Source: Heterodontus francisci
Lineage: Eukaryota
Direction of reading: 5' to 3'
Length of the DNA stretch: 64,000 bases
NCBI RefSeq assembly: GCF_036365525.1
Contig: NC_090371.1
Span: 36,253,387-36,317,386, forward strand
This document shows, piece after piece, positions 5,136 to 49,932 of the stretch (its first letter is position 1; each line of letters starts with the position of its first letter). The notes under the pieces were generated by a model. The model was not told the origin of the DNA, searched no databases, and was given only the letters and a program-made list of their open reading frames with translations. The position numbers and the translations under genes are program-made.

Positions 5136-5536
5136 GTAAGTGCCTTTCGAACTGAAAGTTCCTTTGTCTGAAAATATTTAATTTAAGTTGCTGTGATATG
5201 ACTTTTTGAGCGAGTTTTGAGCAAGAGGTTGTTGAACTGGCTAAGTGACATCCCGATTGTAGAATCGTAAAATCATACAGCACTGGAGGAGGCCATTCGG
5301 CCTATCGTACCTGTGCCTGCTCTTTGAAAGAACTACTCGACTAGTCGCATTCACCTGCTCTCTCCCCCAGCCCTAAAATGTTTCCTTTTCAAGTGTACAT
5401 GTAATTCCATTTTGAAAGTTACTGATGAATCTGTATTCGCTTATCCGGTAGACGGAAAGACAGAAAGAGGATAAGGAATGTTAAAATGAGCTGATTTTGA
5501 GGCTGAAAAAAAACATATGTACATTTTTCTGTTCAG

Positions 5537-5887
5537 CTGTCCAAGCCCAGCAGGTCTTACTGCAGACTCCAAGGAGAATATTGGCGACCAAAGGCGAGAA
5601 GACAGAAATCTTCTGTAATTTGAAAGGATCCTCCTCACTCGATCAGGTATTCTGGTACAAACTCGATGAAAACTCCAACGCGCATTTTGTGATGTCGGCC
5701 AGTGTCCTGAATAAACAGACCCAAGGAGAAGGAATAAATGAACGGTTCATTTTGAATAGAGATGCCTTCCGACTGTCGTTCAGTTTAACGATTATGGATT
5801 TGAGCCTCTCCGACAATGGTACCTATCACTGCCTAATGTTGTCCTCTCAAACCATGCTGCTGGGAGAAGGAAGTGTGGTCACTGTAG
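5537..5887 (+). CDS. CD8B: CD8 beta-like gene, exon 2 (Ig V domain with J-like G strand)
   Basis: Acceptor ttctgttcag|, donor G|GTAAGG, 351 nt, phase 1-1. V-set motifs IFCNL, VFWY, SDNGTYHC, LGEGSVVTV. LQTP, RDAFR and CLMLSSQTMLLGEG resemble CD8 beta (LQQTP, RDASRF, CMIVGSPELTFGKG). Confidence 0.85.
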
Positions 5888-6596
5888 GTAAGGAGATCTC
5901 GAATTTGGATACTGTAAACAGTAACATTTCAAAAAAAATCTTTAAAAAGTAAAATCAGAAAATTCTAGAAACACTCAGCGGCTCAGGCAGTGGAGAGAAA
6001 TAGAGTTAATATTTTAGGCTGATAGCCTTTCATCAGGACCTGCAAAAAATATAGTGGCACATTCATTATAAAGGCCTTCAGAAATCAGTACGGTTGTGAT
6101 TTCAGATATTCCTGTTTCGTAAACGTTTGCTCTGCGCAATTGCCATTTTCAAAGTTATTAATTTAACTGTAGGAACTCCGCTGTATATTCCGATTATACC
6201 GGTTTTCCCTAAGGTTTTGTGATTGAGTTTTAGGATGGGTGCTCTTGGTTCATATTGTTCTACTTGCTGGATGATTGATTTTTAGAGAAGTTATTATCAT
6301 GACTCGTCATCATTCTCAAGTCTAACAAAGTCGGAATTGGAACAAAAACAAGAAATGCTGGATTCACTCAGCAGGTCTGGCAGCATCTGTGGAAAGAGAA
6401 GCAGAGTTAACGTTTCGGGTCAGTGACCCTTCTTCGGAATTGGATTTGTCGTAATTTGATAACGTTAGATCTGATATAGATAACCCCCCAGGGTCCCTGC
6501 GTTGCTGGTTACGAGTTGTTCGCTTTTATTTGACACAAGGCGCTTGGATATAACACACACTAGAACATAATGCTCACAAAACGCTGTTCCTTTCAG

Positions 6597-17567: not shown

Positions 17568-20500
17568 TTTTTTTTTATTCATTCATGGGATGTGGGCGTC
17601 ACTGGCTATGCCAGCATTTATTGCTCATCCCTAATTGCCCTTGAGAAGGTGGTGGTGAGCTGCCTTCTTGAACTGCTGCAGTCCATGTGAGGTAGGTACA
17701 CCCACAGTGCTGTTAGGAAGGGAGTTCCAGGATTTTGACCCAACGACAGTGAAGGAACGGCGATATAGTTCCAAGTCAGGATGGTGTGTGACTTGGACGG
17801 GAACTTGCAGGTGGTGATGTTCCCATGCATCTGCTGCTCTTGTCCTTCGAGGTGGTAGAGGTCGCGGGTTTGGAAGGTGCTGTCGAAGGAGCCTTGGTAC
17901 ATTGCTGCAGTGCATCTTGTAGATGGTACACACTGCTGCCACTGTGCGTCGGTGGTGGAGGGAGTGAATGTTTGTAGATGGGGTGCCAATCAAGCGAGAT
18001 GCTTTGTTCTGGATGGTATCGAGCATCTTGAATGTTGTTGAAGCTGCACCCATCCAGGCAAGTGGAGAGTATTCCATCACACTCCTGACTTGTGCCTTGT
18101 CGATGGTGGACAGGCTTTGGGGAGTCAGGAGGTGAGTTACTTGCCACAGGATTCCTAGCCTCTGACCTGCTCTTGTAGCCACGGTATTTATATGACTACT
18201 CCAGTTCAGTTTCTGGTCAATGGTAGCCCCTAGGATGTTGATAGTGGGGGATTCAGCGATGGTAATGCCATTGAAAGTCAAGGGGAGATGATTAGATTCT
18301 CTCTTGTTGGAGGTGGTCATTGCCTGGCACTTGTGCGGCACAAATGTTACTTGCCACCTATCAGCCCAAGCCTGGATATTCTCTAGGTCTTGCTGCATTT
18401 CTACATGGACTGCTTCAGTATTTGAGGAGTAGCGAATGGTGCTGAACATTGTGCAATCATCAGCGAACATCCCCACTTCTGACATTATGATTGAAGGAAG
18501 GTCATTGATGAAGCAGCTGAAGATGGTTGGGCCTAGGACACTACCCTGAGGAACTCCTGCAGTGATGTCCTGGAGCTCAGATGATTGACCTCCAACAACT
18601 ACAGTCATCTTCCTTTGCGCTAGGTATGACTCCAACCAACAGAGAGTTTTCCCCCTGATTCCCATTGACCTCAGTTTTGCTGGGGCCCCTTGGTGCCATA
18701 CTTGGTCAAATGCTGCCTGGATGTCTAGTGCAGTCACTCTCACCTCACCTCTTGAGTTCAGTTCTTTTGTCCATGTTTGAACCAAGACTGTAATGAGGTC
18801 AGGAGCTGAGTGGCCCTGGCGGAACCCAAACTGAGCATCACTGAGCAGGTTATTGTTAAGCAAGTGCCGCTTGATAGCACTGTCGATGACACCTTCCATC
18901 ACTTTACTGATGATTGAGAGTAGACTGATGGGGCGGTAATTGGCCGTGTTGGACTTGTCCTGCTTTTTGTATACAGGACATACCTGGGCAATTTCCACAT
19001 TGCAGGGTAGATGCCAGTGTTGTCGCTGTACTGGAACAGCTTGGCTAGGGGCGCAGCAAGTTCTGGAGCACAGGTCTTCAGTACTATTGCTAGAATATTG
19101 TCAGGACCCATAGCCTTTGCAGTATCCAGTGCCTTCAGTCGTTTCTTGATATCACGTGGAGTGAATCGAATTGGCTGAAGTCCAGCATCTGTGATGCTGG
19201 GGACTTCAGAAGGGGGCTGAGATGAATCATCAACTCGGCACTTCTGGCTGAAGATTGTTGCAAATGCTTCTGCCTTATCTTTCGCACTAATTTTCTGGGC
19301 TCCCCCATCATTGAGGATGGGGATATTTGTGGAGCCACCTCCTCCAGTTAGTTGTTTAATTGTCCACCACCATTCACGACTGGATGTGGCAGGACTGCAG
19401 AGCTTAGATCTGATCCGTTGGTTATGGGATCGCTTAGCTCTGTCGATTGCATGCTGCTTATGCAGTTTGGCACACAGATAGTCCTGGGTTGTACCTTCAC
19501 TGGGTTGACACCTCATTTTGAGGTATGCCTGGTGCTGCTCCTGGCATGCCCTCCTGCATTCTTCACTGAACCAGGGTTGGTCTCCTGGCTTGATGGTAAT
19601 GGTCGAGTGGGGAATATGCCAGGCCATGAGGTTACAGATTGTGGTTGAGTACAATTCTGCTGCTGCTGATGGCCCACAGCGCCTCATGGATGCCCAATTT
19701 TGCATTGCTAGATCTGTTCGTAATCTATCCCATTTAGCACAGTGATAGTGCCACACAACACGATGGACGGTATCCTCAATGTGAAGGCGGGACTTCGTTT
19801 CCACAAGGACTATGCGGTGGTCACTCCTACCAATACAGTCATGGACAGAAGCATCTGCGGCAGGCAGATTGGTGAGGACAAGGTCAAGTATGTTTTTCCC
19901 TCGTGTTGGTTCCCCCACCACCTGCCGCAGACCCAGTCTAGCAGCTACGTCCTTTATTACTTGGCCAGCTCGGTCAGTAGCGGTGCTACTGAGATACTCT
20001 TGGTGATGGACATTGAAGTCCCTCACCCAGAGTACATTTTGTGCCCTTGCCACCCTCAGTGCATCCTCCAAGTGGTGTTCAACATGGAGGAGTACTGACT
20101 CATCAGCTGAGGGAGGGCGGTAGGTGGTAATCAGTAGGAGGTTACCTTGCCCATGTTTGACCTGATGCCATGAGACTTCATGGGGTCCGGAGTCGATGTT
20201 GAGGACTCCCAGGGCAACTCCCTCCCTCCTGTAGACCACTGTCCCGCCACCTTTACTGGGTCTGTCCTGCCGGTGGGACAGAACATACCCAGGGATAGTG
20301 ATTGCAGTGTCTGGGACATTGTCTGTCAGGTACGATTCCGTGAGTATGACTATGTCAGGCTGTTGCTTGACTAGTCTGTGGGACAGCTCTCCCAACTTTG
20401 GCACAAGCCTCCAGATGTTAGTGAGGAGGACTTTGCAGGGTCGACAGGGCTGGGTTTGCCGTTGTCGTTTCCAGTGCCTAGGTCGATGCCGGGTGGTCCA

Positions 20501-20851
20501 TCCAGTTTCATTCCTTTTCATTGACTTCATAGAGGTTATGTACAACTGAGTGGCTTGCTAGGCCATTTCAGAGGGCATGTAAGAGTTAACCACATTGCTG
20601 TGGGTCTGGAGTCACATGTAGGCCAGACCAGGTAAGGACAGCAGATTTCCTTCCCTGAAGGACATTAGTGAACTAGATGGGTTTTTACAACAATGGTTTC
20701 ATGGCCATCATTAGACTAGCTTTTAATTCCAGATTTATTAATTAAATTCAAATTCCACCTTCTGCTGTGGTGGGATTCTGACCCCTGTCTCCAGATCAAT
20801 ACCTGGGTCTCTGGGTTACTGGTCCAGTGATAATACCACTACGCCACCGCC
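17568..20851 (-). mobile_element. Full-length single-ORF APE-RT LINE (CR1/L2 group, Zenon-like) with a tRNA-derived 5' head
   Basis: APE (TNIWRL, ILTES, DFNVH, SDH) and RT (ALDIQAAFDQVWH, GVPQGSVLGP, FADD) in 20545-17631 with one 1-bp frameshift near 18993. Short 3' UTR, (TGAA)n plus poly(A), TCCT on both flanks. A box at 20836-20846, B-box-like at 20773-20783. Confidence 0.9.
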
Positions 20852-21724: not shown

Positions 21725-22042
21725 AAGATGTAACGAGTGGTGTGTCACAGGGACCTGTGCTGGAGCCTCAACTTTTTGCAATTTATGTAAATGACTTAGA
21801 TGAAGGGACCGAAGGTATGGTTGCTAAATTTGCTGATGACACAAAGATAGGTAAGAAAGTAACTTATGAAGAGGACATAAGGGGGCTACAAAGGGATATA
21901 GGTAGGTTAATTGAGTGGACAAAGACCTGGCAAATGGAGTAGAACATAGAACATAGAACATACAGCACAGAACAGGCCCTTCGGCCCACAATGTTGTGCC
22001 GATCCTTTGTCCTCTGTCAAGGACAATTTAATCTATACCCCA

Positions 22043-24937
22043 TCATTCTCCTTTATCCATATACCTATCCAAAAGCCTTTTGAAAGTCCCTAAAGTTTCT
22101 GACTCAACAACTTCCCCGGGCAAGGCATTCCATGCCTCGACCACTCTCTGGGTAAAGAACCTTCCCCTGACATCCCCCTTATATCTCCCACCCTTCACCT
22201 TAAATTTATGACCCCTTGTAACGCTTTGCTCCACCCGGGGAAAAAGTTTCTGACTGTCTACCCTATCTATTCCCCTGATCATCTTATAAACCTCTATCAT
22301 GTCACCCCTCATCCTTCTCCTTTCTAATGAGAAGAGGCCTAGAATGTTCAGCCTTTCCTCGTAAGACTTATTCTCCATTCCAGGCAACATCCTGGTAAAT
22401 CTCCTCTGCACCCTCTCCAAGGCTTCCACATCCTTCCTAAAATGAGGCGACCAGAACTGCACACAGTACTCCAAATGAGGCCTTACCAAGGTCCTGTACA
22501 GCTGCATCATCACCTCACGGCTCTTAAATTCAATCCCTCTGCTAATGAACGCTAACACCCCATATGCCTTCTTCACAGCCCTATCCACTTGAGTTGCAAC
22601 TTTCAATGATCTATGCACATAGACCCCAAGGTCTCTCTGCTCCTCCACATGCCCAAGAACCCTACCGTTAACCCAGTATTTTGCATTCATGTTTGTCCTT
22701 CCAAAATGGACGACCTCACACTTTTCAGGGTTAAACTCCATCTGCCACTTTTCAGCCCAGCACTGCAACCTATCCAAGTCCCTTTGCAGACGACAATAGC
22801 CCTCCTCGGTATCCACAACTCCACCAACCTTTGTATCATCTGCAAATTTACTGACCCACCCTTCGACTTCCTCATCCAAGTCGTTAATAAAAATCACAAA
22901 CAGGAGAGGACCCAGAACTGATCCCTGCGGCACGCCACTGGTAACTGGGCTCCAGGCTGAGTATTTACCATCTAAGACCACTCTCTGCCTTCTATCAGTT
23001 AGCCAATTCTTAATCCAACTGGCCACATTCCCCACTATCCCATGCCTCCTGACTTTCTCCATAAGTCTACCATGGGGGACCTTATCAAATGCCTTACTAA
23101 AATCCATGTACACCACATCCACTGGTTTACCCTCATCCACTTGCTTGGTCACCTGCTCAAAGAATTCAATCAGGCTTGTGAGGCAAGACCTACCCCTCAC
23201 AAAACCGTGCTGACTGTCCCGAATCAAGCAGTGTCTTTCCAGATGCTCAGAAATCCTATCCCTCAGCACCTTTTCCATCAACTTGCCTACCACCGAAGTA
23301 AGACTAACTGGCCTGTAATTCCCAGGGTTGTTCCTATTCCCTTTCTTGAACAGGGGCACAACATTTGCCACCCTCCAATCACCTGGTACCACCCCCGTCA
23401 GCAGAGAAGATGAAAAGATCATTGCCAGCGGCTCTGCAATTTCATCCCTTGCTTCCCATAACATCCTTGGATATACCCCGTCAGGCCCGGGAGACTTGTC
23501 TATCTTCAAGTTATTCAAAAACCCCAACACGTCTTCCCTCCTAACGAGCACTTCCTCGAGCTTACCAGTCTGTTTCACACCGTCCTCTTCAGTAATACAC
23601 CCCTTCTCATTCGTAAATACCGAAGAGAAGTACTCATTCAAAACCTCACTTATCTCTTCCGGCTCAACACACAGTCTCCCGCTATTGTCCTTGACCGGAC
23701 CTACGGTCCCCCTAGTCATCCTCATATTTCTGACATACGCGTAAAAGGCCTTGGGGTTTTCTTTTATCCTACCCGCCAAGCATTTTTCATGCCCTCTCTT
23801 AGCTCTCCTAATCCCTTTCTTCAGATCCTTCCTGGCCATCTTGTATCCCTCCAGAGCTATGCCTGTGCCCTTTTTCCTCAACTTTATATACGCATCCTTC
23901 TTCTTCCTAACAAGACTCTCAACCTCTCTTGTCAACCACGGTTCCCTCACATGACCATCCCTTCCCTGTCTGACAGGGACATGCTTATCAATGGCCCCTA
24001 CTATCTGCTCCTTGAAAAAGTTCCACATTTCGACCGTGCCCTTCCCTGCCAGCATATGCTCCCAACTTATGCTCCTCAGTTCCTGCCTGACAGCATCATA
24101 TCTACCCTTCCCCCAATTGTAAACCTTGCCCTGTTGCACATACCTATCCCTCTCCATTACCACAGTGAATGCTACAGAATTGTGATCACTATCTCCAAAG
24201 TGCTCGCCCACCAACAGCTCTATCACTTGCCCTGGTTCATTACCTAGTACCAAATCCAATATTGCCTCCCCTCTGGTCGGGCAGTCTACATACTGCGTCA
24301 GAAAAGCTTCCTGGACATACTGCACAAACACTACCCCATCCAAACTATTCGATCTAAAGAGTTTCCAATCAATATTTGGGAAGTTGAAATCCCCCATAAT
24401 TACTACCCTGTGACTTCTGCTCCTTTCCAAAATCTGTTTCCCAATCTGCTCTTCCACCTCCCTGCTGCTATTGGGGGGCCTATAGAAAACTCCCATCAAG
24501 GTGACTGCTCCTTTCCTGTTCCTGACCTCAACCCACAGTGCCTCAGTCGGCAGATCCTCCTCGAAAATTCTTTCAGCAGTTGTTACACTATTTCTAACTA
24601 ACAATGCCACCCCCCCACCTCTTTTACCACCATTCCTAATCTTATGAAAACATCTATAACCAGGTACCTCCAAAAACCATTCCTCCCCCTCACCTATCCA
24701 CGTTTCAGTGATGGCCACAACATCGTAGTCCCAAGTGCCCATCCACGCCTTCAATTCACTCACCTTATTCCTGATGCTTCTTGCGTTGAAGTATACGCAC
24801 TTTAACCCTTCTCCGTGCCCATCTGTCCTCTGTGACAGTGCTACCTTCCCCAATACCTCACTACACTCTTTGTCTTTCTGAGTGGACCCACTGGTCCCTG
24901 GATTACAAGTCCGGTTCCCATCCCCCTCCCAAACTAG
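22043..24937 (-). CDS. CR1 ORF2 (APE endonuclease plus reverse transcriptase), open from the ORF1 stop, no N-terminal AUG
   Basis: YFNARS, ITETW, GDFN, SDHN, YMDFSKAFDK, GVPQGSVLGP, KFADD. No stops over 964 codons. Confidence 0.9.
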   Translation of the reverse strand, partial: LVWEGDGNRTCNPGTSGSTQKDKECSEVLGKVALSQRTDGHGEGLKCVYFNARSIRNKVSELKAWMGTWDYDVVAITETWIGEGEEWFLEVPGYRCFHKIRNGGKRGGGVALLVRNSVTTAERIFEEDLPTEALWVEVRNRKGAVTLMGVFYRPPNSSREVEEQIGKQILERSRSHRVVIMGDFNFPNIDWKLFRSNSLDGVVFVQYVQEAFLTQYVDCPTRGEAILDLVLGNEPGQVIELLVGEHFGDSDHNSVAFTVVMERDRYVQQGKVYNWGKGRYDAVRQELRSISWEHMLAGKGTVEMWNFFKEQIVGAIDKHVPVRQGRDGHVREPWLTREVESLVRKKKDAYIKLRKKGTGIALEGYKMARKDLKKGIRRAKRGHEKCLAGRIKENPKAFYAYVRNMRMTRGTVGPVKDNSGRLCVEPEEISEVLNEYFSSVFTNEKGCITEEDGVKQTGKLEEVLVRREDVLGFLNNLKIDKSPGPDGVYPRMLWEARDEIAEPLAMIFSSSLLTGVVPGDWRVANVVPLFKKGNRNNPGNYRPVSLTSVVGKLMEKVLRDRISEHLERHCLIRDSQHGFVRGRSCLTSLIEFFEQVTKQVDEGKPVDVVYMDFSKAFDKVPHGRLMEKVRRHGIVGNVASWIKNWLTDRRQRVVLDGKYSAWSPVTSGVPQGSVLGPLLFVIFINDLDEEVEGWVSKFADDTKVGGVVDTEEGYCRLQRDLDRLQCWAEKWQMEFNPEKCEVVHFGRTNMNAKYWVNGRVLGHVEEQRDLGVYVHRSLKVATQVDRAVKKAYGVLAFISRGIEFKSREVMMQLYRTLVRPHLEYCVQFWSPHFRKDVEALERVQRRFTRMLPGMENKSYEERLNILGLFSLERRRMRGDMIEVYKMIRGIDRVDSQKLFPRVEQSVTRGHKFKVKGGRYKGDVRGRFFTQRVVEAWNALPGEVVESETLGTFKRLLDRYMDKGE

Positions 24938-25854
24938 TTTAAACCCTCCCGAACAGTACTAGCAAACCTCCCTCCCAGGATATTGGTGCCCCTCTGGTTC
25001 AGATGCAGCCCGTCCTGTTTGAACAGGTCCCATCTTCCCCAGAATGCAGTCCAATTATCCAAGAACTGGAAGCCCTCCCTCCTACACCATTCCTGCAGCC
25101 ACGTGTTCAGCTGTGCTCTCTCCCTATTCCTAGCCTCACTATCACGTGGCGCCGGCAACAAACCAGAGATAACAACTCTGTCCGTCCGAGCTTTCAGCTT
25201 CCAGCCTAACTCCCTAAACTCACTTCTAACATCTGTGCCACCCTTCCTTCCTACGTCGTTGGTGCCAATGTGCACCACGACCTCTGGCTGCTCCCCCTCC
25301 CCTTTAAGGATCCTGAAGACGCGATCACAAACATCACGGACCCTGGCACCAGGGAGGCAACAAACCATCCGTGCGTCTCGCCTGCGCCCACAGAACCGCC
25401 TGTCCGTACTCCTCACCATCGAGTCCCTGATGACTAGTGCTCTCCCATTCTCCCTCCTTCCCTTCTGAGCCACAGTGCAGGACCCCGTGCCAGAGGCCCG
25501 GTCACTGCAGCCTGCCCCCGATAGGCCGTCCCCCCCAACAGTATCTAAAACTGTATACTTGTTGTTGAGGGGAACGACCACAGGAGATCCCTGCACTGAC
25601 CTCTTCCCACCTCTAACTGTTACCCAGCTGCCTTTGATTTGTGGAGTAACGACCTCCGTGTAGCTTCTATCTATCAACCCCTCAGCTTCCCGAATGATCC
25701 TCAGTTCATCCAGCTCCAGCTCCAATTCCCTAACACGGTCTGATAGGAGCTGGAGACGGATGCACTTCCAGCAGGTGAAGTCGGCAGGGTCACCGGAGGT
25801 TCCCCTCACCTCGAACATACTGCAGGAGGAGCAATACACTACACTGGCTGCCAT
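24934..25854 (-). CDS. CR1 ORF1 (Cys zinc finger, coiled coil, SGNH esterase-like domain), 306 aa
   Basis: CSSC...CWKC, VRELELELDEL, (R)DSM, HIGTND, DGLHLN. The GDS glycine is Arg in this copy. Confidence 0.9.
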   Translation of the reverse strand: MAASVVYCSSCSMFEVRGTSGDPADFTCWKCIRLQLLSDRVRELELELDELRIIREAEGLIDRSYTEVVTPQIKGSWVTVRGGKRSVQGSPVVVPLNNKYTVLDTVGGDGLSGAGCSDRASGTGSCTVAQKGRRENGRALVIRDSMVRSTDRRFCGRRRDARMVCCLPGARVRDVCDRVFRILKGEGEQPEVVVHIGTNDVGRKGGTDVRSEFRELGWKLKARTDRVVISGLLPAPRDSEARNRERAQLNTWLQEWCRREGFQFLDNWTAFWGRWDLFKQDGLHLNQRGTNILGGRFASTVREGLN

Positions 25855-26031
25855 TTCTTTTATTCAATTACCCCTTAGTTAAGTACAACTATAGATATTA
25901 ACAAAAACAGTAAATAGCTTACCTGCTCAGTCCTTTTTGGTTAGAGGAGGAGGGTAAAAAGGGTCTTATTATTAGGTTAGAGTAGGAGGATGGGTGGGAG
26001 ACACTACACGTGTAGTGGCTCGGGTTTACTC

Positions 26032-26666: not shown

Positions 26667-29600
26667 GAACAAAGAACAAAGAAAATTACAGAACAGGAAC
26701 AGGCCCTTCGGCCCTCCAAGCCTGCGCCGATCCAGATCCTCTATCTAAACCTGTCGCCTATTTTCTAAGGGTCTGTATCTCTTTGCTTCCTGCCCATTCA
26801 TGTATCTGTCTAGATACATCTTAAAAGACGCTATCGTGCCCGCGTCTACCACCTCCGCTGGCAACGCGTTCCAGGCACCCACCACCCTCTGCGTAAAGAA
26901 CTTTCCATGCATATCCCCCCTAAACTTTTCCCCTCTCACTTTGAACTCGTGACCCCTAGTAATTGAATCCCCCACTCTGGGAAAAAGCCTCTTGCTATCC
27001 ACCCTGTCTATACCTCTCATGATTTTGTACACCTCAATCAGGTCCCCCCTCAACCTCCGTCTTTCTAATGAAAATAATCCTAATCTACTCAACCTCTCTT
27101 CATAGCTAGCGCCCTCCATACCAGGCAACATCCTGGTGAACCTCCTCTGCACCCTCTCCAAAGCATCTACATCCTTTTGGTAATGTGGCGACCAGAACTG
27201 CACGCAGTATTCCAAATGTGGCCGAACCAAAGTCTGATACAACTGTAACATGACCTGCCAACCCTTGTACTCAATACCCCGTCCGATGAAGGAAAGCATG
27301 GCGTATGCCTTCTTGACCACTCTATTGACCTGTGGCAACCTTCAGGGAACAATGGACCTGAACACCCAAATCTCTCTGTACATCAATTTTCCCCAGCACT
27401 TTTCCATTTACTGTATAGTTCACTCTTGAATTGGATCTTCCAAAATACATCACCTCGCATTTGCCCTGATTGAACTCCAGCTGCCATTTCTCTGCCCAAC
27501 TCTCCAATCTATCTATATTCTTCTGTATTCTCTGACAGTCCCCTTCACTATCTGCTACTCCACCAATCTTAGTGTCGTCTGCAAACTTGCTAATCAGACC
27601 ACCTATACTTTCCTCCAAATCATTTATGTATATCACAAACAACAGTGGTCCCAGCACAGATCCCTGTGGAACACCACTGGTCACACTTCTCCATTTTGAG
27701 AAACTCCCTTCCACTGCTACTCTCTGTCTCCTGTTGCCCAGCCAGTTCTTTATCCATCTAGCTAGTACACCCTGGATCCCATGCAACTTCACTTTCTCCA
27801 TCAGCCTACCATGGGGAACCTTATCAAACGCCTTACTGAAGTCCATGTATATGACATCTACAGCCTTCCCTCATCAATCAACTTTGTCACTTCCTCAAAG
27901 AATTCTATTAAGTTGGTAAGACATGACCTTCCCTGCACAAAACCATGTTGCCTATCACTGATAAGCCCATTTTCTTCCAAATGGGAATAGATCCTATCCC
28001 TCAGTATCTTCTCCAGCAGCTTCCCTACCACTGACGTCAGGCTCACAGGTCTATAATTACCTGGATTATCCCTGCTACCCTTCTTAAACAAGAGGACAAC
28101 ATTAGCAATTCTCCAGTCCTCCGGGACCTCACCCGTGTTTAAGGATGCTGCAAAGATATCTGTTAAGGCCCCAGCTATTTCCTCTCTCGCTTCCCTCAGT
28201 AATAAATAGATCCCATCCGGACCTGGGGACTTGTCCACCTTAATGCCTTTTGGAATACCCAACACTTCCTCCCTCCTTATGCCGACTTGACCTGGAGTGA
28301 GCAAACATCTATCCCTAACCTCAACATCCGTCATGTCCCTCTCCTCGGTGAATACCGATGCAAAGTACTCGTTTAGAATCTCACCCATTTTCTCTGACTC
28401 CACACATAATTTTCCTCCTTTGTCCTTGAGTGGGCCAATCCTTTCTCAAGTTACCCTCTTGCTCCTTATATATGAATAAAAGGCTTTGAGATTTTCCTTA
28501 ACCCTGTTTGCTAAAGATATTTCATGACCCCTTTTAGCCCTCTTAATTCCTCGTTTCAGATTGGTCCTACATTCCCGATATTCTTCCAAAGCTTCGTCTT
28601 TCTTCAGCCTCCTAGACCTTATGTATGCTTCCTTTTTCCTCTTAGCTAGTTTCACAATTTCACCTGTCATCCATGGTTCCCTAATCTTGCCATTTCTATC
28701 CCTCATTTTCACAGGAACATGTCTCTCCTGCACGCTAATCAACCTCTCTTTAAAAGCCTCCCACATATCAAATGTGGATTTATCTTCAAACAGCTGCTCC
28801 CAATCTACATTCCCCAGCTCCTGCCGAATTTTGGTATAGTTGGCCTTCCCCCAATTTAGCACTCTTCCTTTCGGACCACTCTCGTCTTTGTCCATGAGTA
28901 TTCTAAAACTTACGGAATTGTGATCACTATTCCCAAAGTAGTCCCCTACTGAAACTTCAACCACCTGGCCGGGCTCATTCCCCAACACCAGGTCCAGTAT
29001 GGCCCCTTCCCGAGTTGGACTATTTACATACTGCTCTAGAAAACCCTCCTGGATGCTCCTTACAAATTCTGCTCCATCTAGACCTCTAACACTAAGTGAA
29101 TCCCAGTCAATGTTGGGAAAATTAAAATCTCCTATCACCACCACCCTGTTGCTCCTACATCTTTCCATAATCTGTTTACATATTTGTACCTCTATTTCAC
29201 ACTCGCTGTTGGGAGGCCTGTAGTACAGCCCCAACATTGTTACCGCACCCTTCCTATTTCTGAGTTCTGCCCATATTGCCTCACTGCTCGAGTCCTCCAT
29301 AGTGCCCTCCTTCAGCACAGCTGTGATATCCTCTTTGACCAGTAATGCAACTCCTCCACCCCTTTTACCTCCCTCTCTATCCCGCCTGAAGCATCGATAT
29401 CCTGGGATATTTAGTTGCCAATTGTGCCCTTCACTCAACCAAGTCTCAGTAATAGCAATAACATCATACTCCCAGGTACTAATCCAAGCCCTAAGTTTAT
29501 CTGCCTTACCTACTGCACTTCTTGCATTAAAACAAATGCACCTCAGACCACCAGTCCCTTTGCGTCCATCATCTGCTCCCTGCCTACTTTTCCCCTTAGT

Positions 29601-29978
29601 CACACTGACTTCATTATCTAGTTCCTCACAGGCTTTCGTTACTACCTCCTTACTGTCCACTGACCTCCTCATTTGGTTCCCATCTCCCTGCCACATTAGT
29701 TTAAACCCTCCCCAACAGCGTTAGCAAAAGCATCCCCAAGGAAATTGGTTCCAGTCCGGCCCAGGTGTAGACCGTCCAATTTGTAATAGTCCCACCTCCC
29801 CCAGAACCGGTCCCAATGTCCCAAAAATCTGAGCCCCTCCCTCCTGCACCATCTCTCAAGCCACGCATTCAGCCTGACTATTCTTTCATTTCTACTCTGA
29901 CTATCCCGTGGCACTGGTAGCAATCCTGAGATTACTACCTCTGAGGTCCTACTTTTTAACTTGGCTCCTAACTCCCAT
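26667..29978 (-). mobile_element. CR1, 5'-truncated within ORF1, with frameshifted ORF2
   Basis: ORF1 end (DGLHLG...GEGLN*), then APE and RT spread over four ORFs, (TTCTTTG)n tail. Confidence 0.9.
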
Positions 29979-32922: not shown

Positions 32923-35845
32923 CAGCGGTAGCAGTGAGAGTGCGAGCCAGGGGGCAGCTGGGAAGGTAAGTTTCACTATAAAATACTTACCTCCTGATTC
33001 GGCGGACACGGACACGGGGACTGCTGGGGAAGTGAACTTATATATTCGGGCAGTGGCTAAACCCGAAACACTACACCTGTAGTGTCTCCCACCCATCCTC
33101 CTCCTCTAACCAAAAAAAAAGGACTGTTGTGTGGAGGGTTTGGTAAGGGAAGGTTTCCCTTTATTTTTACTTAATCTCTGTGTCAATTTAGAGCCGAGGG
33201 GATGGAAGCTAGGGCAGTTGCATGCTCCTCTTGCAGGATGTGGGAGGTAAGGGTCACCACTGGTGTCCCTGCTGTGAGAAGTGCACCCAACTCCAGCTCC
33301 TCACAGACCGCGTTAGGGAACTGGAGCTGGCTGAACTTCGGATCATTCAGGCGGCTGAGGGGGTGATAGAGAGCAGTTATAGAGAGGTAGTGACACCTAA
33401 GTTACAGGATAGAGGTAGCTGGGTGACCGTCAGGGGAGGGAAAGGGAATAGGCGCACAGTGCAGGGATCCCCTGTGGCCATTCCCCTCAATAATAAGTAT
33501 ACTGTTTTGGATACGGTTGGGGGGGACGACCTACCAGGGGAAAGCTACAGCGGCCAGGTCTCTGGCACTGAGCCTGGCTCTGTGGCTCAGAAGGGAAGGG
33601 GGGAGAATAGGAGAGCGATAGTGATAGGAGATTCAATGGTTAGAGGAACAGACAGGAGATTCTGTGGTCGCGAACGAGACTCCCGGATGGTATGTTGCCT
33701 CCCGGGTACCAGGGTCAGGGATGTCTCGGATCGAGTCTACAGGATTCTTAAGGGGGAGGGGGAGCAGCCAGAAGTCGTGGTACACATCGGTACCAATGAC
33801 ATAGCTAGGAAAAGGGATGAGGACCTGAAAAGCGAATATAGGGAGTTAGGTTGAAGCTAAAAGGCAGGACGAGCAGGATAGTAATCTCAGGATTGATACC
33901 GGTGCCACGTGCTAGTGAGGCTAGAAACAGAGAGCGAGTGCAGCTGAACACGTGGCTACAGAGCTGGTGTAGGAGGGAGGGCTTCAGATATGTGGATCAT
34001 TGGGATACCTTCTGGGGAAGGTGGGACCTGTACAAGAAGGACGGGTTGCATCTGAACTGGAGGGGCACCAATATCCTGGGCGGGAGGTTTGCGAGAGCTC
34101 TTCAGGAGGGTTTAAACTAGTTTGGCAGGGGGATGGGAACCAGACCTACGGAACAGTGGATGGGGTAGCTGTTGAACAGGCAGATACAGAGTGCAGAGAG
34201 TCTGTGAGGAAGGTTAGACAGTTGACAGGGCAAAGTTGCAGCCAGTATGATGGGTTGAAGTGTGTCTATTTTAATGCAAGAAGTGTCAGGAATAAGGGCG
34301 ATGAACTTAGAGCATGGATCAGTACTTGGAGCTACGATGTTGTGGCCATTACGGAGACGTGGATATCACAGGGGCAGGAATGGATGTTGGATGTTCCGGA
34401 GTTTAGATGTTTCAAAAGGAATAGGGAGGGAGGTAAAAGAGGTGGGGGAGTGGCATTGCTAATCAGGGATAGTATCACAGCTGCAGAAAGGGAGGTCGTC
34501 GAGGAGGGTTTGTCTACTGAGTCATTATGGGTGGAAGTCAGATACAGGAAAGGAGCAGTCACTTTATTGGGAGTTTTCTATAGACCCCCCAATAGCAACA
34601 GAGACACGGAGGAACAAATTGGGAGGCAGATTTTGGAAAGGTGCAGAAGTAACAGGGTTGTTGTCATGGGTGACTTCAACTTCCCTAATATTGATTGGAA
34701 CCTCCTTAGTGCAAATAGTTTGGATGGAGCAGTTTTTGTCAGGTGTGTCCAGCATTGTTTCCTGACTCAATATGTAGATAGGCCGACTAGAGGGGAGGCT
34801 ATATTGGATTTGGTGCTTGGCAACGAACCAGGCCAGGTGACAGATCTCTCGGTGGGAGAGCATTTCGGTGATAGTGATCACAACTCCCTGACCTTTACAA
34901 TAGTCATGGACAGGGATAGGAGCAGACGGGATGGGAAAATATTTAATTGGGGGAGGGGGAATTACAATGCTATTAGGCAGGAACTGGGGAGCATAAACTG
35001 GGAACAGATGTTCTCAGGGAAATGCATGACAGAAATGTGGAGGTTGTTTAGGGAGCACTTGCTGCGACTGCTGGATAGGTTTGTCCCGATGAGGCAAGGA
35101 AGGGATGGTAGGAACCTTGGATGACAAGAGATGTGGAACAGCTAGTCAAGAGGAAGAAGGAAGCTTACTTAAGGTTGAGGAAGCAAGGATCAGACAGGGC
35201 TCTAGAGGGTTACAAGGTAGCCAGGAAGGAACTGAAGAATGAACTTAGGAGAGCTAGAAGGGGACATGAAAAAGTCTTGGCGAGTAGGATTAAGGAAAAT
35301 CCCAAGGCATTATTCACTTATGTGAGGAACAAGAGGATAGCCAGAGTGAGGGTAGGGCCGTTCAGGGATAGTGGAGGGAACTTGTGCCTGGAGTCGGAGG
35401 AGGTAGGGGAGGTCCTAAATGAATACTTTGCTTCAGTATTCACTAGTGAGAGGGACCTGGTCGTTTGTGAGGACAGCGTGAAACAGGCTGATATGCTCGA
35501 ACAGGATAGATAGAGTGGATAGCCAGAGACTTTTTCCCAGGGTGGAAAGGGCTATCACCAGGGGGCATAATTTTAAGGTGATTGGAGGAAGGTTTCGGGG
35601 AGATGTCAGAGGTAGGTTCTTTACACAGAGAGTGGTGGGTGCGTGGAATGCACTGCCAGCGGTGGTAGTAGAAGCAGATACATTAGGGACATTTAAGCGA
35701 CTCTTGGATAGGTACATGGATGATAGTAGTATGAAGGGTATGTAGGTAGTTTGATCCTGGAGTCGGTTAAAGGTTCGGCACAACATCGTGGTTCGAAGGG
35801 TCTGTACTGTGCTGTACTGTGCTGTACTGTTCTATGTTCTATGTT
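32923..35845 (+). mobile_element. Internally deleted CR1 (5' UTR, ORF1, APE, no RT, intact 3' end) inserted in an L2 3' fragment
   Basis: Disrupted ORF1 ~33200-34120, APE ~34120-35110. Jumps near 35505 from QADMLEQ to DRVDSQRLFP. (GTTCTAT)n tail. L2 sequence at 32690-32922 resumes after ctaa at ~35846. Confidence 0.85.
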
Positions 35846-47545: not shown

Positions 47546-49932
47546 AAAGGTGGGAGACGCAATACTGTATATTTTGCTTCTCGTTCGTTAACTGGAATTG
47601 AACAGAGATACGCAATAATAGAAAAGGAAGCTTTGGCAGCAACTTAGACATGTAAAAAAATTTCAGATTATGTCCGAGATCTTCATTTCAAAATCAAAAC
47701 AGATCATAAACTGTTGGTTATTCTATTAAACTCAAAGGAGCTTGTGAAATTACCTCCAAGAGTACAGAGGTTTCGTTTAAGATTGATGAGATTTGACACA
47801 AAAACTGAATACATTCCAGGGAAACAGCAGATCACAGCAGACGCTTTATCACATCTTCCAACGGCAGGACCACAAAAATGAGAAGTTTTGCTTCTCGAAG
47901 ACATAAAAGTTTTTTTTTTATTCGTTCACGTGATGTGGGCATCGCTGTCTAGGCTGGTATTTATTGCCCATCCCTAATTGCCCTTGAGAAGGTGGTGGTG
48001 ACCCACCTTCTTGAATCGCTGCAGTCTTTGTGGGGTAGGTACACCAACAGTGCTGTTAGGAAGGGAGTTCCAGGATTTTGACCCAGTGACAGTGAAGGAA
48101 TGGTGATATAATTCCAAGTCAGGATGGTGTATGACTTGGAGGGGAACTTGCAGATGGTGGTGTTCCCATGCATCTGCTGCCCTTGTCCTTCTAAGTGGTA
48201 GAGGTCGTGGGTTTGGAAGATGCTGTCTAAGGAGCCTTGGTGCACTGCTGCAGTGCTTTGATGATGACAGCAACTTTACCAGTTACAGCTCAAAAACTGA
48301 GTAAGATCAGGAATGTGGAGAAAACAGACGAATTGTTTGCAAAAATCAGAGAATATTGCTTGAATGGTTAGAGTATATGCCATATTACCCTGTTTGAAGA
48401 CAATATTATGAACATAAACGTCATGTAAGCATTGTTGATGATTACTGATCTACAATGAGCGATTAGTTATCCCTAGAGTATTGAGATTAGATATCTAGGT
48501 GAGATTGCACAAAGGACATTTGGAAATTATGAAGTGTAGAGCCAGGTGACATATTCAGTATGGTAGCCTGGTATATCGAAGGAAATTGAAGAGATGATAT
48601 CGAGATGTATCACGTGTGCTATCAATCGACAGGAGATGAAAGAACCACTCATGTCTTCTTTTTCTTGCCAAAGGTCTGCCATGCTCATATTGAATAGCGG
48701 AGCAGGCTCAATGGGCCATATAGTCTATTCCTGCTCCTATTTCTTGTATTCTTGTGTTTCCGTCCAGACTATGGGAGTGTCTAGGGATGGATCTTTTTGA
48801 ACATAAGAGTAACATGTTCCTAATAGTTGTCGATAATTGTTCAAGGTGGATTGAAGTTAAACAACTACAAGGTCAAAGTGCAGAAGCTGTAATCACAGCC
48901 TTGAGAGAAATATATGCTGCACATGGAATTCCAGATATTGTGATATGTGACAATGGGCCACAATTTGCAAATGAATGTTTCAGAGAGTTTACAGAAATAT
49001 GCAGATTTATCCATATGACTAGCTCACTAAGGTACCCTCAGGCTGATGGTGAAGCAGGGAGAGGTGTACGGACTGTGATTGCATTGTTAAAAAGGAATGA
49101 AGATCTTCAACGAGCACTTTTAAGTTATCAATCAACACCATTTCAGAACGATTTAGCCCCATGTGAATTGTTAATGGAAAGAAGGTTGAAGACCCAGCTT
49201 CCTACACTCCTGAGTACCTTCAAGCCACAAGTAAGTGCAGAAAACTTGGAGAGAGAGGATAGAGAGTGGTCACATCAATCAGAAAAATATGATAGACATC
49301 ACAGAGCAAGAAACATGTCAGACATCTAACCTAGGGAATCAGTTTGGGTTAGAGACCAAAATCGATAAGGAGAAGTGATAGACAAATCACCACGTCCATG
49401 ATCATACATTGTCCAAACTGACCAAGGAATGATAGGAAATAGGTCATTGGTGATGATACCAAAAAAGCAGCAAATACAAGAGGACCAATCATCTCAAGAG
49501 TTTGCTGAATCAATGATGCTGCAATCAGCCATCAACCCAGAGCACAACCTGAATGAATAACTTGAGTCATCCAATAGTTCGACTCAAGCACTGCAAAGTC
49601 AGAAGGAGGAACTAGAAGACTCAAAACCTCAAACCCCTTTTAAAGAAAGAAGAACGCGTTATGGCAGACTTGTGAAAACGCCACAGTGATTATCGATCTG
49701 AAAAGAAAAGTCGGCGACCTGGGGGGAGATGTAGTACAATGTAATATAGAGTTGTTACTGGGCAGAATATATAAATAGACTGTGAGGATTATGATGTAAA
49801 GTAATCTATACAACCTCGCAGAGAGTTGTAGTGGAAGCCTTCGATGCAAGACATGTGTAAATAAACTCCTGTTACTATAACCCTCAGACTCATATATATA
49901 TTCTGTACTAAGTTACCAGAATATGGTACTAA
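47546..49932 (+). mobile_element. Degenerate Gypsy LTR retrotransposon (RNase H, integrase, PPT, 3' LTR)
   Basis: YFASRSLT...RYAIIEKEALA, integrase DLF...DNGPQF...YPQADGEAGR, PPT GGGGGGAGA at 49721-49729, LTR from TGTAGTAC at 49730. LINE 3' fragment inserted at 47910-48256. Confidence 0.85.

Follow-up and report, generated by a model that had tools for sequence, protein, structure and literature searches.

How the second open reading frame (ORF2) of a bicistronic CR1-type long interspersed element (LINE) is translated is the question raised by a 64,000-nucleotide stretch of the Heterodontus francisci genome (RefSeq assembly GCF_036365525.1, contig NC_090371.1, positions 36,253,387 to 36,317,386; hereafter the window). 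Three CR1-type LINE copies are present in the window, with junctions between the first open reading frame (ORF1) and ORF2 at 24943-24934 on the minus strand (copy 1), 29705-29696 on the minus strand (copy 2), and 34111-34120 on the plus strand (copy 3). In each copy ORF1 ends with GAG GGT TTA AAC and a stop codon (TAG in copy 1, TAA in copy 2, TAG in copy 3), the heptamer U_UUA_AAC stands in the X_XXY_YYZ phase with the ORF1 frame, and the -1 frame reads F-K-L-x-W-x-G-D-G-N and continues into an APE endonuclease. This arrangement, with ORF2 in the -1 frame, had been described in an earlier sequence-only reading of the window and was confirmed for all three copies. TTTAAAC occurs 19 times on the two strands of the window, and is directly followed by a stop codon only at the three CR1 junctions. 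Comparison of the junctions across the genome of H. francisci (6.0 Gb in 2,306 contigs; hereafter the own genome) and among more distant relatives makes it likely that programmed -1 ribosomal frameshifting gives rise to a predicted ORF1-ORF2 fusion of about 1,270 amino acids (aa) in these CR1 LINEs.

Anatomy of the CR1 copies in the window

The features of the three copies are as follows (nt, nucleotides):

24934..25854, minus strand: ORF1 of copy 1, 306 aa, with an N-terminal Cys motif and an SGNH/GDSL esterase, ending G-L-N-stop
24937..24943, minus strand: slippery heptamer U_UUA_AAC of copy 1
24934..24936, minus strand: ORF1 stop codon TAG of copy 1, directly 3' of the heptamer
24922..24926, minus strand: G-run of copy 1, which begins 10 nt 3' of the heptamer and 7 nt past the stop; candidate unstructured stimulator
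22043..24943, minus strand: ORF2 frame (-1) of copy 1, 966 codons, with a 47-codon linker, APE endonuclease and reverse transcriptase
21940..22042 (approximate), minus strand: 3' untranslated region (UTR) of copy 1, with short tandem repeats of the TGTTCTA type at its end
29699..29705, minus strand: slippery heptamer of copy 2, in which ORF1 is 5'-truncated and ORF2 is broken at 28446
29694..29698, minus strand: overlapping stop-start TAATG of copy 2, with the AUG in the ORF2 frame
29684..29688, minus strand: G-run position of copy 2, GGGAG, in which one G is altered
34111..34117, plus strand: slippery heptamer of copy 3, in which ORF1 is broken and the ORF2 frame ends at 35124
34128..34132, plus strand: G-run of copy 3, 10 nt 3' of the heptamer

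Both reading frames are open in copy 1 only, copies 2 and 3 being broken. The ORF1 product of copy 1 matches PF13472 (SGNH/GDSL esterase, E 1.5e-13), and its ORF2 product matches PF03372 (APE) and PF00078 (reverse transcriptase), with additional matches to L1 endonuclease (EN) and ExoIII. The TGTTCTA-type repeats, about 100 nt past the ORF2 stop codon, constitute a tandem-repeat 3' end that is neither poly(A) nor a long terminal repeat (LTR). By its anatomy and by the homology of its ORF1 to turtle and bird proteins, the element is classed as a CR1-group LINE with an esterase ORF1; the closest named homologues of the window ORF1 are from sharks and rays. An esterase ORF1, an APE-reverse transcriptase ORF2 and a tandem-repeat tail also characterize the canonical CR1 of vertebrates (PMC13343379; this and the other published sources, cited by PMC number, are drawn upon in part). 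The fusion length calculated in the sequence-only reading (306 + 964 = 1,270 aa) holds for copy 1, with its 306-aa ORF1 and 966-codon -1 frame. Identity among the three copies is 67-82% upstream of the junction, falls to 50-56% across the linker and is 63-77% over the APE domain.

Conservation of the heptamer in the own genome

Genome-wide copies were counted by means of a pattern that matches the final part of the esterase domain (the ORF1 tail) and places no requirement on the heptamer. This anchor identified 36,399 copies in the own genome, compared to 30 for a reversed control, and 31,185 of them (85.7%) possess the exact sequence T TTA AAC. The first T, a synonymous position, is altered in 491 anchor copies, and the third base of the Leu codon in 539 (Phe codons included); another 4,184 copies fall outside these three classes. 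The variants, in the 100 matches listed for each kind, are scattered across subfamilies and all substitutions, and among the 100 Leu-third-base variants listed, non-synonymous Phe codons are about as frequent as TTG. This spread of variants, and the parity of Phe codons with TTG, fit decay after insertion. One candidate for an active subfamily lacking the heptamer, consisting of five TTTGAAC copies on contig C3, was rejected: with about 10 kb of common sequence and identical stops, it represents segmental duplication of a dead copy. At this location (G000:C3:182.87-185.79 Mb, L188-L192), at least five copies that are approximately 98-99% identical over a segment of at least 10 kb lie within 3 Mb of sequence and represent a segmental duplication of recent origin.

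A set of 109 own-genome loci was fetched, 50 via a downstream motif and 59 via the upstream anchor, with six near-identical tandem duplicates skipped. Together with the window these loci provided 97 junctions, of which 93 have the exact heptamer; they form 16 clusters whose ORF1 tails are 42-85% alike. One register-shifted copy was dropped, and the remaining 96 copies were assigned to 24 groups, some of which consist of truncated copies from a shared subfamily. Leu is preceded by a codon for G, S, A, V or D, yet this codon ends in T in all 24 groups; Leu is encoded by TTA in 23 groups and Asn by AAC in all 24. The invariant D-G-L-H-L and G residues of the catalytic loop just upstream are encoded by two to six codons each in the same groups, and TTA accounts for 10 of the 101 Leu codons of copy 1. 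The junctional stop codon, which in the great majority of cases directly adjoins the heptamer, is kept as a stop while its identity varies between TAA, TAG and TGA, both in the 24 groups and among the tree representatives.

Parsimony on a tree of 39 representatives assigns 5-14 changes to each third position in ORF1-tail codons 1-23 and 0-1 to each base of the heptamer. When 47 representatives were used, with L115 and L137 omitted for being too short, each heptamer base changed 0-2 times, against 13 changes in the amino acid encoded by codon 24, before Leu. Common synonymous variation at the heptamer had been named beforehand as an outcome that would tell against frameshifting; genome-wide and on the tree, the heptamer proved to be near-invariant and the neighbouring synonymous sites free. 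As judged from these comparisons, the heptamer is a real, deeply conserved signal of the recoding type.

ORF2 frame, linker and start codons

Motif I of the APE domain could be located in 99 of 121 copies. It lies in the -1 frame in 79 of these (71 of them with stop-free linkers), in the +1 frame in 13 and in the 0 frame in seven, the latter being what indels would be expected to produce. Where the linker is open (71 copies), stops occur in the other two frames in 69 and 71 cases. Linker length varies from about 35 to 95 codons across copies. The endonuclease fold starts at approximately codon 48 (the ExoIII match extends over codons 48-190 and the L1 EN match over codons 59-189), and the Glu residue of its ITETW motif aligns with E43 of the L1 endonuclease and is taken here to be catalytic.

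The sequence-only reading had argued that initiation at an AUG would truncate the endonuclease. This is true of copy 1, in which the first in-frame AUG is codon 68 (24742) and the motif-I Asn is codon 53, and of copy 3, in which the first in-frame AUG is codon 92 (34384) and the ITETW Glu is codon 82, but not of copy 2, which has an in-frame AUG at codon 4, overlapping the ORF1 stop. Six own-genome groups have their first in-frame AUG past motif I, at codons 68-153, or have none (for group G3, in five of eight open copies). No near-cognate start position is common to the copies examined. A search of longer proteins for natural fusions gave two matches; one of these, a ray gene model running from ORF1 into F-K-L, is a frame-shifted copy and was rejected as evidence.

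A G-run at fixed distance from the heptamer

The 5' edge of the G-run is located exactly 10 nt after the heptamer, with G in 46 and 47 of the 47 representatives at the first two positions and in 42 at the next two. The seven bases that precede it change 7-14 times each on the tree of 47 representatives, and the amino acid encoded by the codon holding its first G changes 12 times. A run of four Gs is found at the site in 39 of 44 representatives, versus 10.6% of background windows, and GGGG at the exact 10-nt spacing in 25,065 of the 31,185 exact-heptamer copies. The G-rich motif TGGNAGGGRGATGGGAACC had been suggested as a stimulator in the sequence-only reading; its G-run at fixed 10-nt spacing is kept beyond the own genome, but the rest of the motif is lineage-specific. 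We infer a stimulatory role of the G-run in frameshifting and, with the same reserve, the mode by which it may act.

Four GG tracts, with which a two-tier quadruplex is possible, are present in 31 of the 47 representatives, and four GGG tracts in none. A G4Hunter-type score of at least 1.2 was obtained for 22 of the 47, versus 2.8% of the background, and some lineages have a single G6 run. Natural use of G-quadruplexes as frameshift stimulators was not known according to the consulted part of a 2016 review (PMC5009743).

The 5' UTRs of CR1 elements have features of their own. A C-rich motif with 11-14 bp of potential pairing to the G-run is found at about 25985-26010 (minus strand) and 33075-33110 (plus strand) of the window, and at L003, L010, L035 and L057; four divergent CR1 subfamilies possess this motif. 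Several CR1 5' UTRs also contain GGTAAG words that resemble splice donors.

Occurrence among distant relatives

Among the matches listed, 88 of 120 ORF1 homologues possess the DGxH motif, and the C-termini of these 88 are L-N in 75, S-N in three, I-N in one, and other residues in nine. Named sources of ORF1 homologues are rays, sharks, the mormyrid fish Paramormyrops, Hyla, Xenopus and turtles, and the P0110 cluster includes a hoatzin protein. A profile search added 117 more distant proteins, 91 of which belong to one lineage with a 32-residue tail; the DGxH motif is present in 111, of which 97 end in L-N and nine in S-N. A sea-cucumber (Apostichopus) protein, P0180, ends in C-L-N. Although the length of the ORF1 tail ranges from 22 to 32 aa, L-N stays beside the stop. 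A distant lineage that is partly linked to sea cucumbers (P0108, P0112, P0120, P0172-P0181) has ORF1 proteins ending in S-N. DNA of this lineage was not found: viral contigs gave no matches, and the matches among genome contigs were of L-N lineages.

ORF1 alignment matched 54 metagenome loci, 25 of which reach the end of ORF1. The junction sequence is TTTAAAC in 21 of these, GTTAAAC in one, TTTAAAT in one, and decayed in two, the site having been set by the nearest heptamer-like word, with which the ORF1 translation agrees for most loci except the broken-frame L117, L138, L139 and L154. Ten further loci (L193-L202), retrieved after the pattern had been fixed, represent two lineages; nine of the ten have the succession TTTAAAC, TAG, 7 nt and GGGGGG, and one locus is without a recognisable tail. 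These ten loci are probably host DNA inside metagenome-assembled genomes (MAGs). L193-L202 sit in bacterial MAGs, and P0001, with a 90% identical ORF1, is named as a Pseudomonas hydrolase; the occurrence of CR1 in such bacteria-labelled records is most likely due to contamination by animal-host DNA.

Comparison with known systems

The heptamer and its phase are those of infectious bronchitis virus and other coronaviruses (U_UUA_AAC) and of equine arteritis virus (G_UUA_AAC). These viral sites use a 3' pseudoknot. The CR1 junction differs in having no conserved pseudoknot and in having a 0-frame stop directly after the heptamer; because the classical pseudoknot is missing, the CR1 site is a variant outside the structural class of the viral sites. 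U_UUA_AAC is listed among the most shift-prone heptamers in the part of PMC5009743 consulted, and the natural variant G_UU(A) named there is borne by L110. The same source describes a -2/-1 shift in nsp2 of the virus (PRRSV) that causes porcine reproductive and respiratory syndrome, stimulated by nsp1beta and PCBP, for which the unstructured low-complexity motif CCCANCUCC is located 11 nt 3' of the site. The CR1 G-run starts at the 11th base 3' of the heptamer, a spacing that matches the protein-bound linear stimulator of PRRSV, but it is G-rich rather than C-rich, the shift site is different, and a CR1 binding factor is only hypothetical.

A LINE precedent for the mechanism is provided by TRE5-A and TRE3-A of Dictyostelium, for which a -1 frameshift is stated to be required for ORF2 translation (review PMC5911963, in part). 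Like the CR1 elements described here, these are two-ORF APE-reverse transcriptase non-LTR elements with a -1 shift; they differ in clade, in ORF1 type and in their amoeba host, and the likeness is drawn from the description in the review. SART1 and L1 resemble CR1 in having a bicistronic LINE mRNA, and the UAAUG overlap of SART1 is also found in one CR1 subfamily. In contrast to SART1 and L1, most CR1 subfamilies have no AUG at the junction, no downstream structure is conserved, and all retain a slippery heptamer, for which the SART1 and L1 mechanisms have no need.

The terms "frameshift", "slippery", "overlap" and "start codon" have no occurrences in the consulted part of a 2026 CR1 survey (PMC13343379), and a look-up of "frameshift" and "slippery" found neither in the part covered of another CR1 survey (PMC11303007). 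"CR1" does not occur in the examined part of PMC5009743, and the string UUUAAAC is absent from the papers that were matched in a search of full-text literature. This literature gave no report of CR1 frameshifting; the 1997 papers on chicken and turtle CR1 and the notes in Repbase and Dfam lie outside its scope, and an earlier remark on the overlap is possible.

Proposed mechanism

In a minority of ribosomes, tRNA-Leu and tRNA-Asn would re-pair from UUA AAC to UUU AAA, and these ribosomes would go on with CUA or CUG into the linker and the APE-reverse transcriptase. The other ribosomes would stop and free the ORF1 protein (ORF1p), resulting in a high ratio of ORF1p to ORF2 protein (ORF2p), as in Gag/Gag-Pol. 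A pause may arise from slow decoding of the adjoining stop codon together with the G-run, which, when the stop is in the A site, would be positioned 7 nt further 3' at the mRNA entry channel, as a linear and probably protein-bound element rather than a pseudoknot. The variable linker of 35-95 codons would set the esterase apart from the endonuclease. The predicted tryptic junction peptide of the fusion is EGLNLVWEGDGNR. It is possible, although we hold it with less than even confidence, that U_UUA_AAC, the stop, the 7-nt spacer and the G-run are one ancient cassette, extending from echinoderm-type lineages to birds, which would produce a Gag-Pol-like fusion through a structure-free, G-run-stimulated -1 shift, probably driven by a protein at the entry channel (ORF1p or a host G-run binder).

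Evaluation of alternative explanations

Several observations weigh against programmed frameshifting. No local 3' structure is conserved (mean z +0.22, with two of 44 representatives below -2), the window copies fold much as their shuffles do (z 0.98, 0.74 and -0.85), and the pseudoknot score of 19.0 compares to 18.8 for shuffles; by these folding and pseudoknot scores, a classical hairpin or pseudoknot stimulator 5-9 nt downstream was ruled out. Long-range pairing of the G-run was rejected as a general mechanism, since the C-rich 5' UTR partner of four subfamilies was not seen in the 5' regions inspected for a minimum of five other subfamilies, and a C-run common to the subfamilies is not present downstream. 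In twelve distant ORF1 proteins the last two residues are S-N and not L-N, and with S-N a canonical heptamer is impossible. Because L1 ORF2 translation is AUG-independent without frameshifting (PMC11485995, in part), a missing AUG is not diagnostic, and because CR1 lineages without ORF1 exist (PMC13343379), ORF2p needs no fusion. UAAUG is present in 5,811 of the 31,185 exact-heptamer copies (18.6%), apparently all of one subfamily, that of copy 2, and this signal alone would also set ORF2 in the -1 frame. An AUG precedes motif I in seven of ten open metagenome junctions (in four of them two bases past the stop), many bird-like relatives carry an early AUG, and one other group has an AUG at codon 10.

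The UAAUG copies and early AUGs are what would be expected of termination and reinitiation at or next to the ORF1 stop (using an AUG if there is one and any codon otherwise), by which a separate ORF2p would be made, with the heptamer and G-run holding or positioning the post-termination ribosome. SART1 uses UAAUG in this way (PMC3708506 and PMC3894237, in part), the AUG-independence of L1 ORF2 is compatible with it, the stop-start overlap would account for the -1 frame, several other groups have GUG or AUU as their fourth codon, and codon 5 is AUG in six of 47 representatives. Given the UAAUG subfamily and the bird-like relatives, termination-reinitiation remains a real rival, but an unlikely one: it leaves the invariant, in-phase X_XXY_YYZ heptamer unexplained, and the UAAUG subfamily itself retains both heptamer and G-run. 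Moreover, no position near the junction varies more than codon 4, with 21 amino-acid changes on the tree, UAAUG is absent from 81% of exact-heptamer copies, and the downstream structure that SART1 requires is not conserved at CR1 junctions; in the UAAUG subfamily, shuffled sequences fold at least as well as the downstream region (z +0.74 to +1.2). A different use of the stop codon, in which ORF1p is first freed and tRNA-Asn in the P site then re-pairs from AAC to AAA, would need the heptamer and give a separate ORF2p without Met and no fusion. The adjacency of the stop to the heptamer at most junctions, kept while its identity changes, would suit such a slip, as would the terminal Asn retained by S-N-ending lineages, which is consistent with re-pairing of the last tRNA alone, and the function of ORF2p without ORF1 in some CR1 lineages (PMC13343379). 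We consider it quite improbable, since the full tandem heptamer and not A_AAC alone is conserved in nearly all lineages, and plain -1 frameshifting covers the same data by a known mechanism; we know of no natural precedent for slippage after release.

The heptamer and G-run might instead act as a signal, in RNA or DNA, that has no bearing on a change of frame (for packaging, ORF1p binding, an internal promoter, a splice site or internal entry), with ORF2 expressed from another RNA or by internal initiation. G-runs do bind many RNA-binding proteins, and the GGTAAG donor-like motifs of several 5' UTRs could be coupled with TAG as an acceptor in some subfamilies. Such a signal, however, would have no need to keep step with the codons of both ORFs; TAA is the stop in half of the own-genome groups, which therefore have no AG acceptor, and in many lineages the shorter RNA would still be without an AUG before motif I. 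No splice joint at the junction was present in the contigs of four runs, a weak negative as three of the runs are only guessed to be RNA, and one contig covers 24300-25303 unbroken. This explanation is very improbable. Conservation of L-N at the protein level is all that speaks for a constraint on the C-terminal Leu-Asn of ORF1p combined with shared ancestry, an explanation that the alignments have largely refuted and that is scarcely credible: synonymous positions of the heptamer are as fixed as non-synonymous ones (0-2 changes, versus 5-14 at neighbouring third positions), and this fixity spans elements with ORF1 proteins that are about 30% identical. Programmed -1 frameshifting, as proposed in the sequence-only reading, is supported by the near-invariance of the heptamer across subfamilies and distant hosts, from which the shift itself is inferred.

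Other features of the window

Three other open frames in the window are:

5485-5952, plus strand: open frame whose product has an immunoglobulin V-set domain (PF07686, E 1.4e-14); surrounded by repeats, it is probably one exon of an immune-receptor gene of the host
17631-20557, minus strand: another APE-reverse transcriptase LINE, split across two overlapping frames
48724-49329, plus strand: open frame of 201 aa, presumably similar to an LTR-retrotransposon integrase core remnant

Identical pairs of CR1 junction variants are located 92.3 kb apart at G000:C1:36283080/36375388 and 36320776/36413086, one of them being copy 2. These two pairs suggest that the window is part of a tandem segmental duplication of about 92 kb.

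Implications for CR1 biology

The production of ORF2 from bicistronic LINE mRNAs has been described as an open question (PMC3894237, in part), and CR1 as the retrotransposon group that dominates in most vertebrates (PMC13343379, in part). If CR1 elements frameshift as proposed, the question of ORF2 production would become directly testable with a 30-nt cassette, and the functional CR1 enzyme would be redefined as a fusion of esterase, linker, APE endonuclease and reverse transcriptase. Frameshifting would also explain the AUG-less ORF2 starts that are truncated by annotation, and assays of CR1 retrotransposition could be designed accordingly. If the G-run is a stimulator, it would be a natural stimulator of unstructured or G-quadruplex type. 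If the more tentative reading of one ancient cassette is correct, the cassette would add a natural class to the frameshift stimulators known so far, and would place the dominant retrotransposon of vertebrates other than mammals under feedback control.

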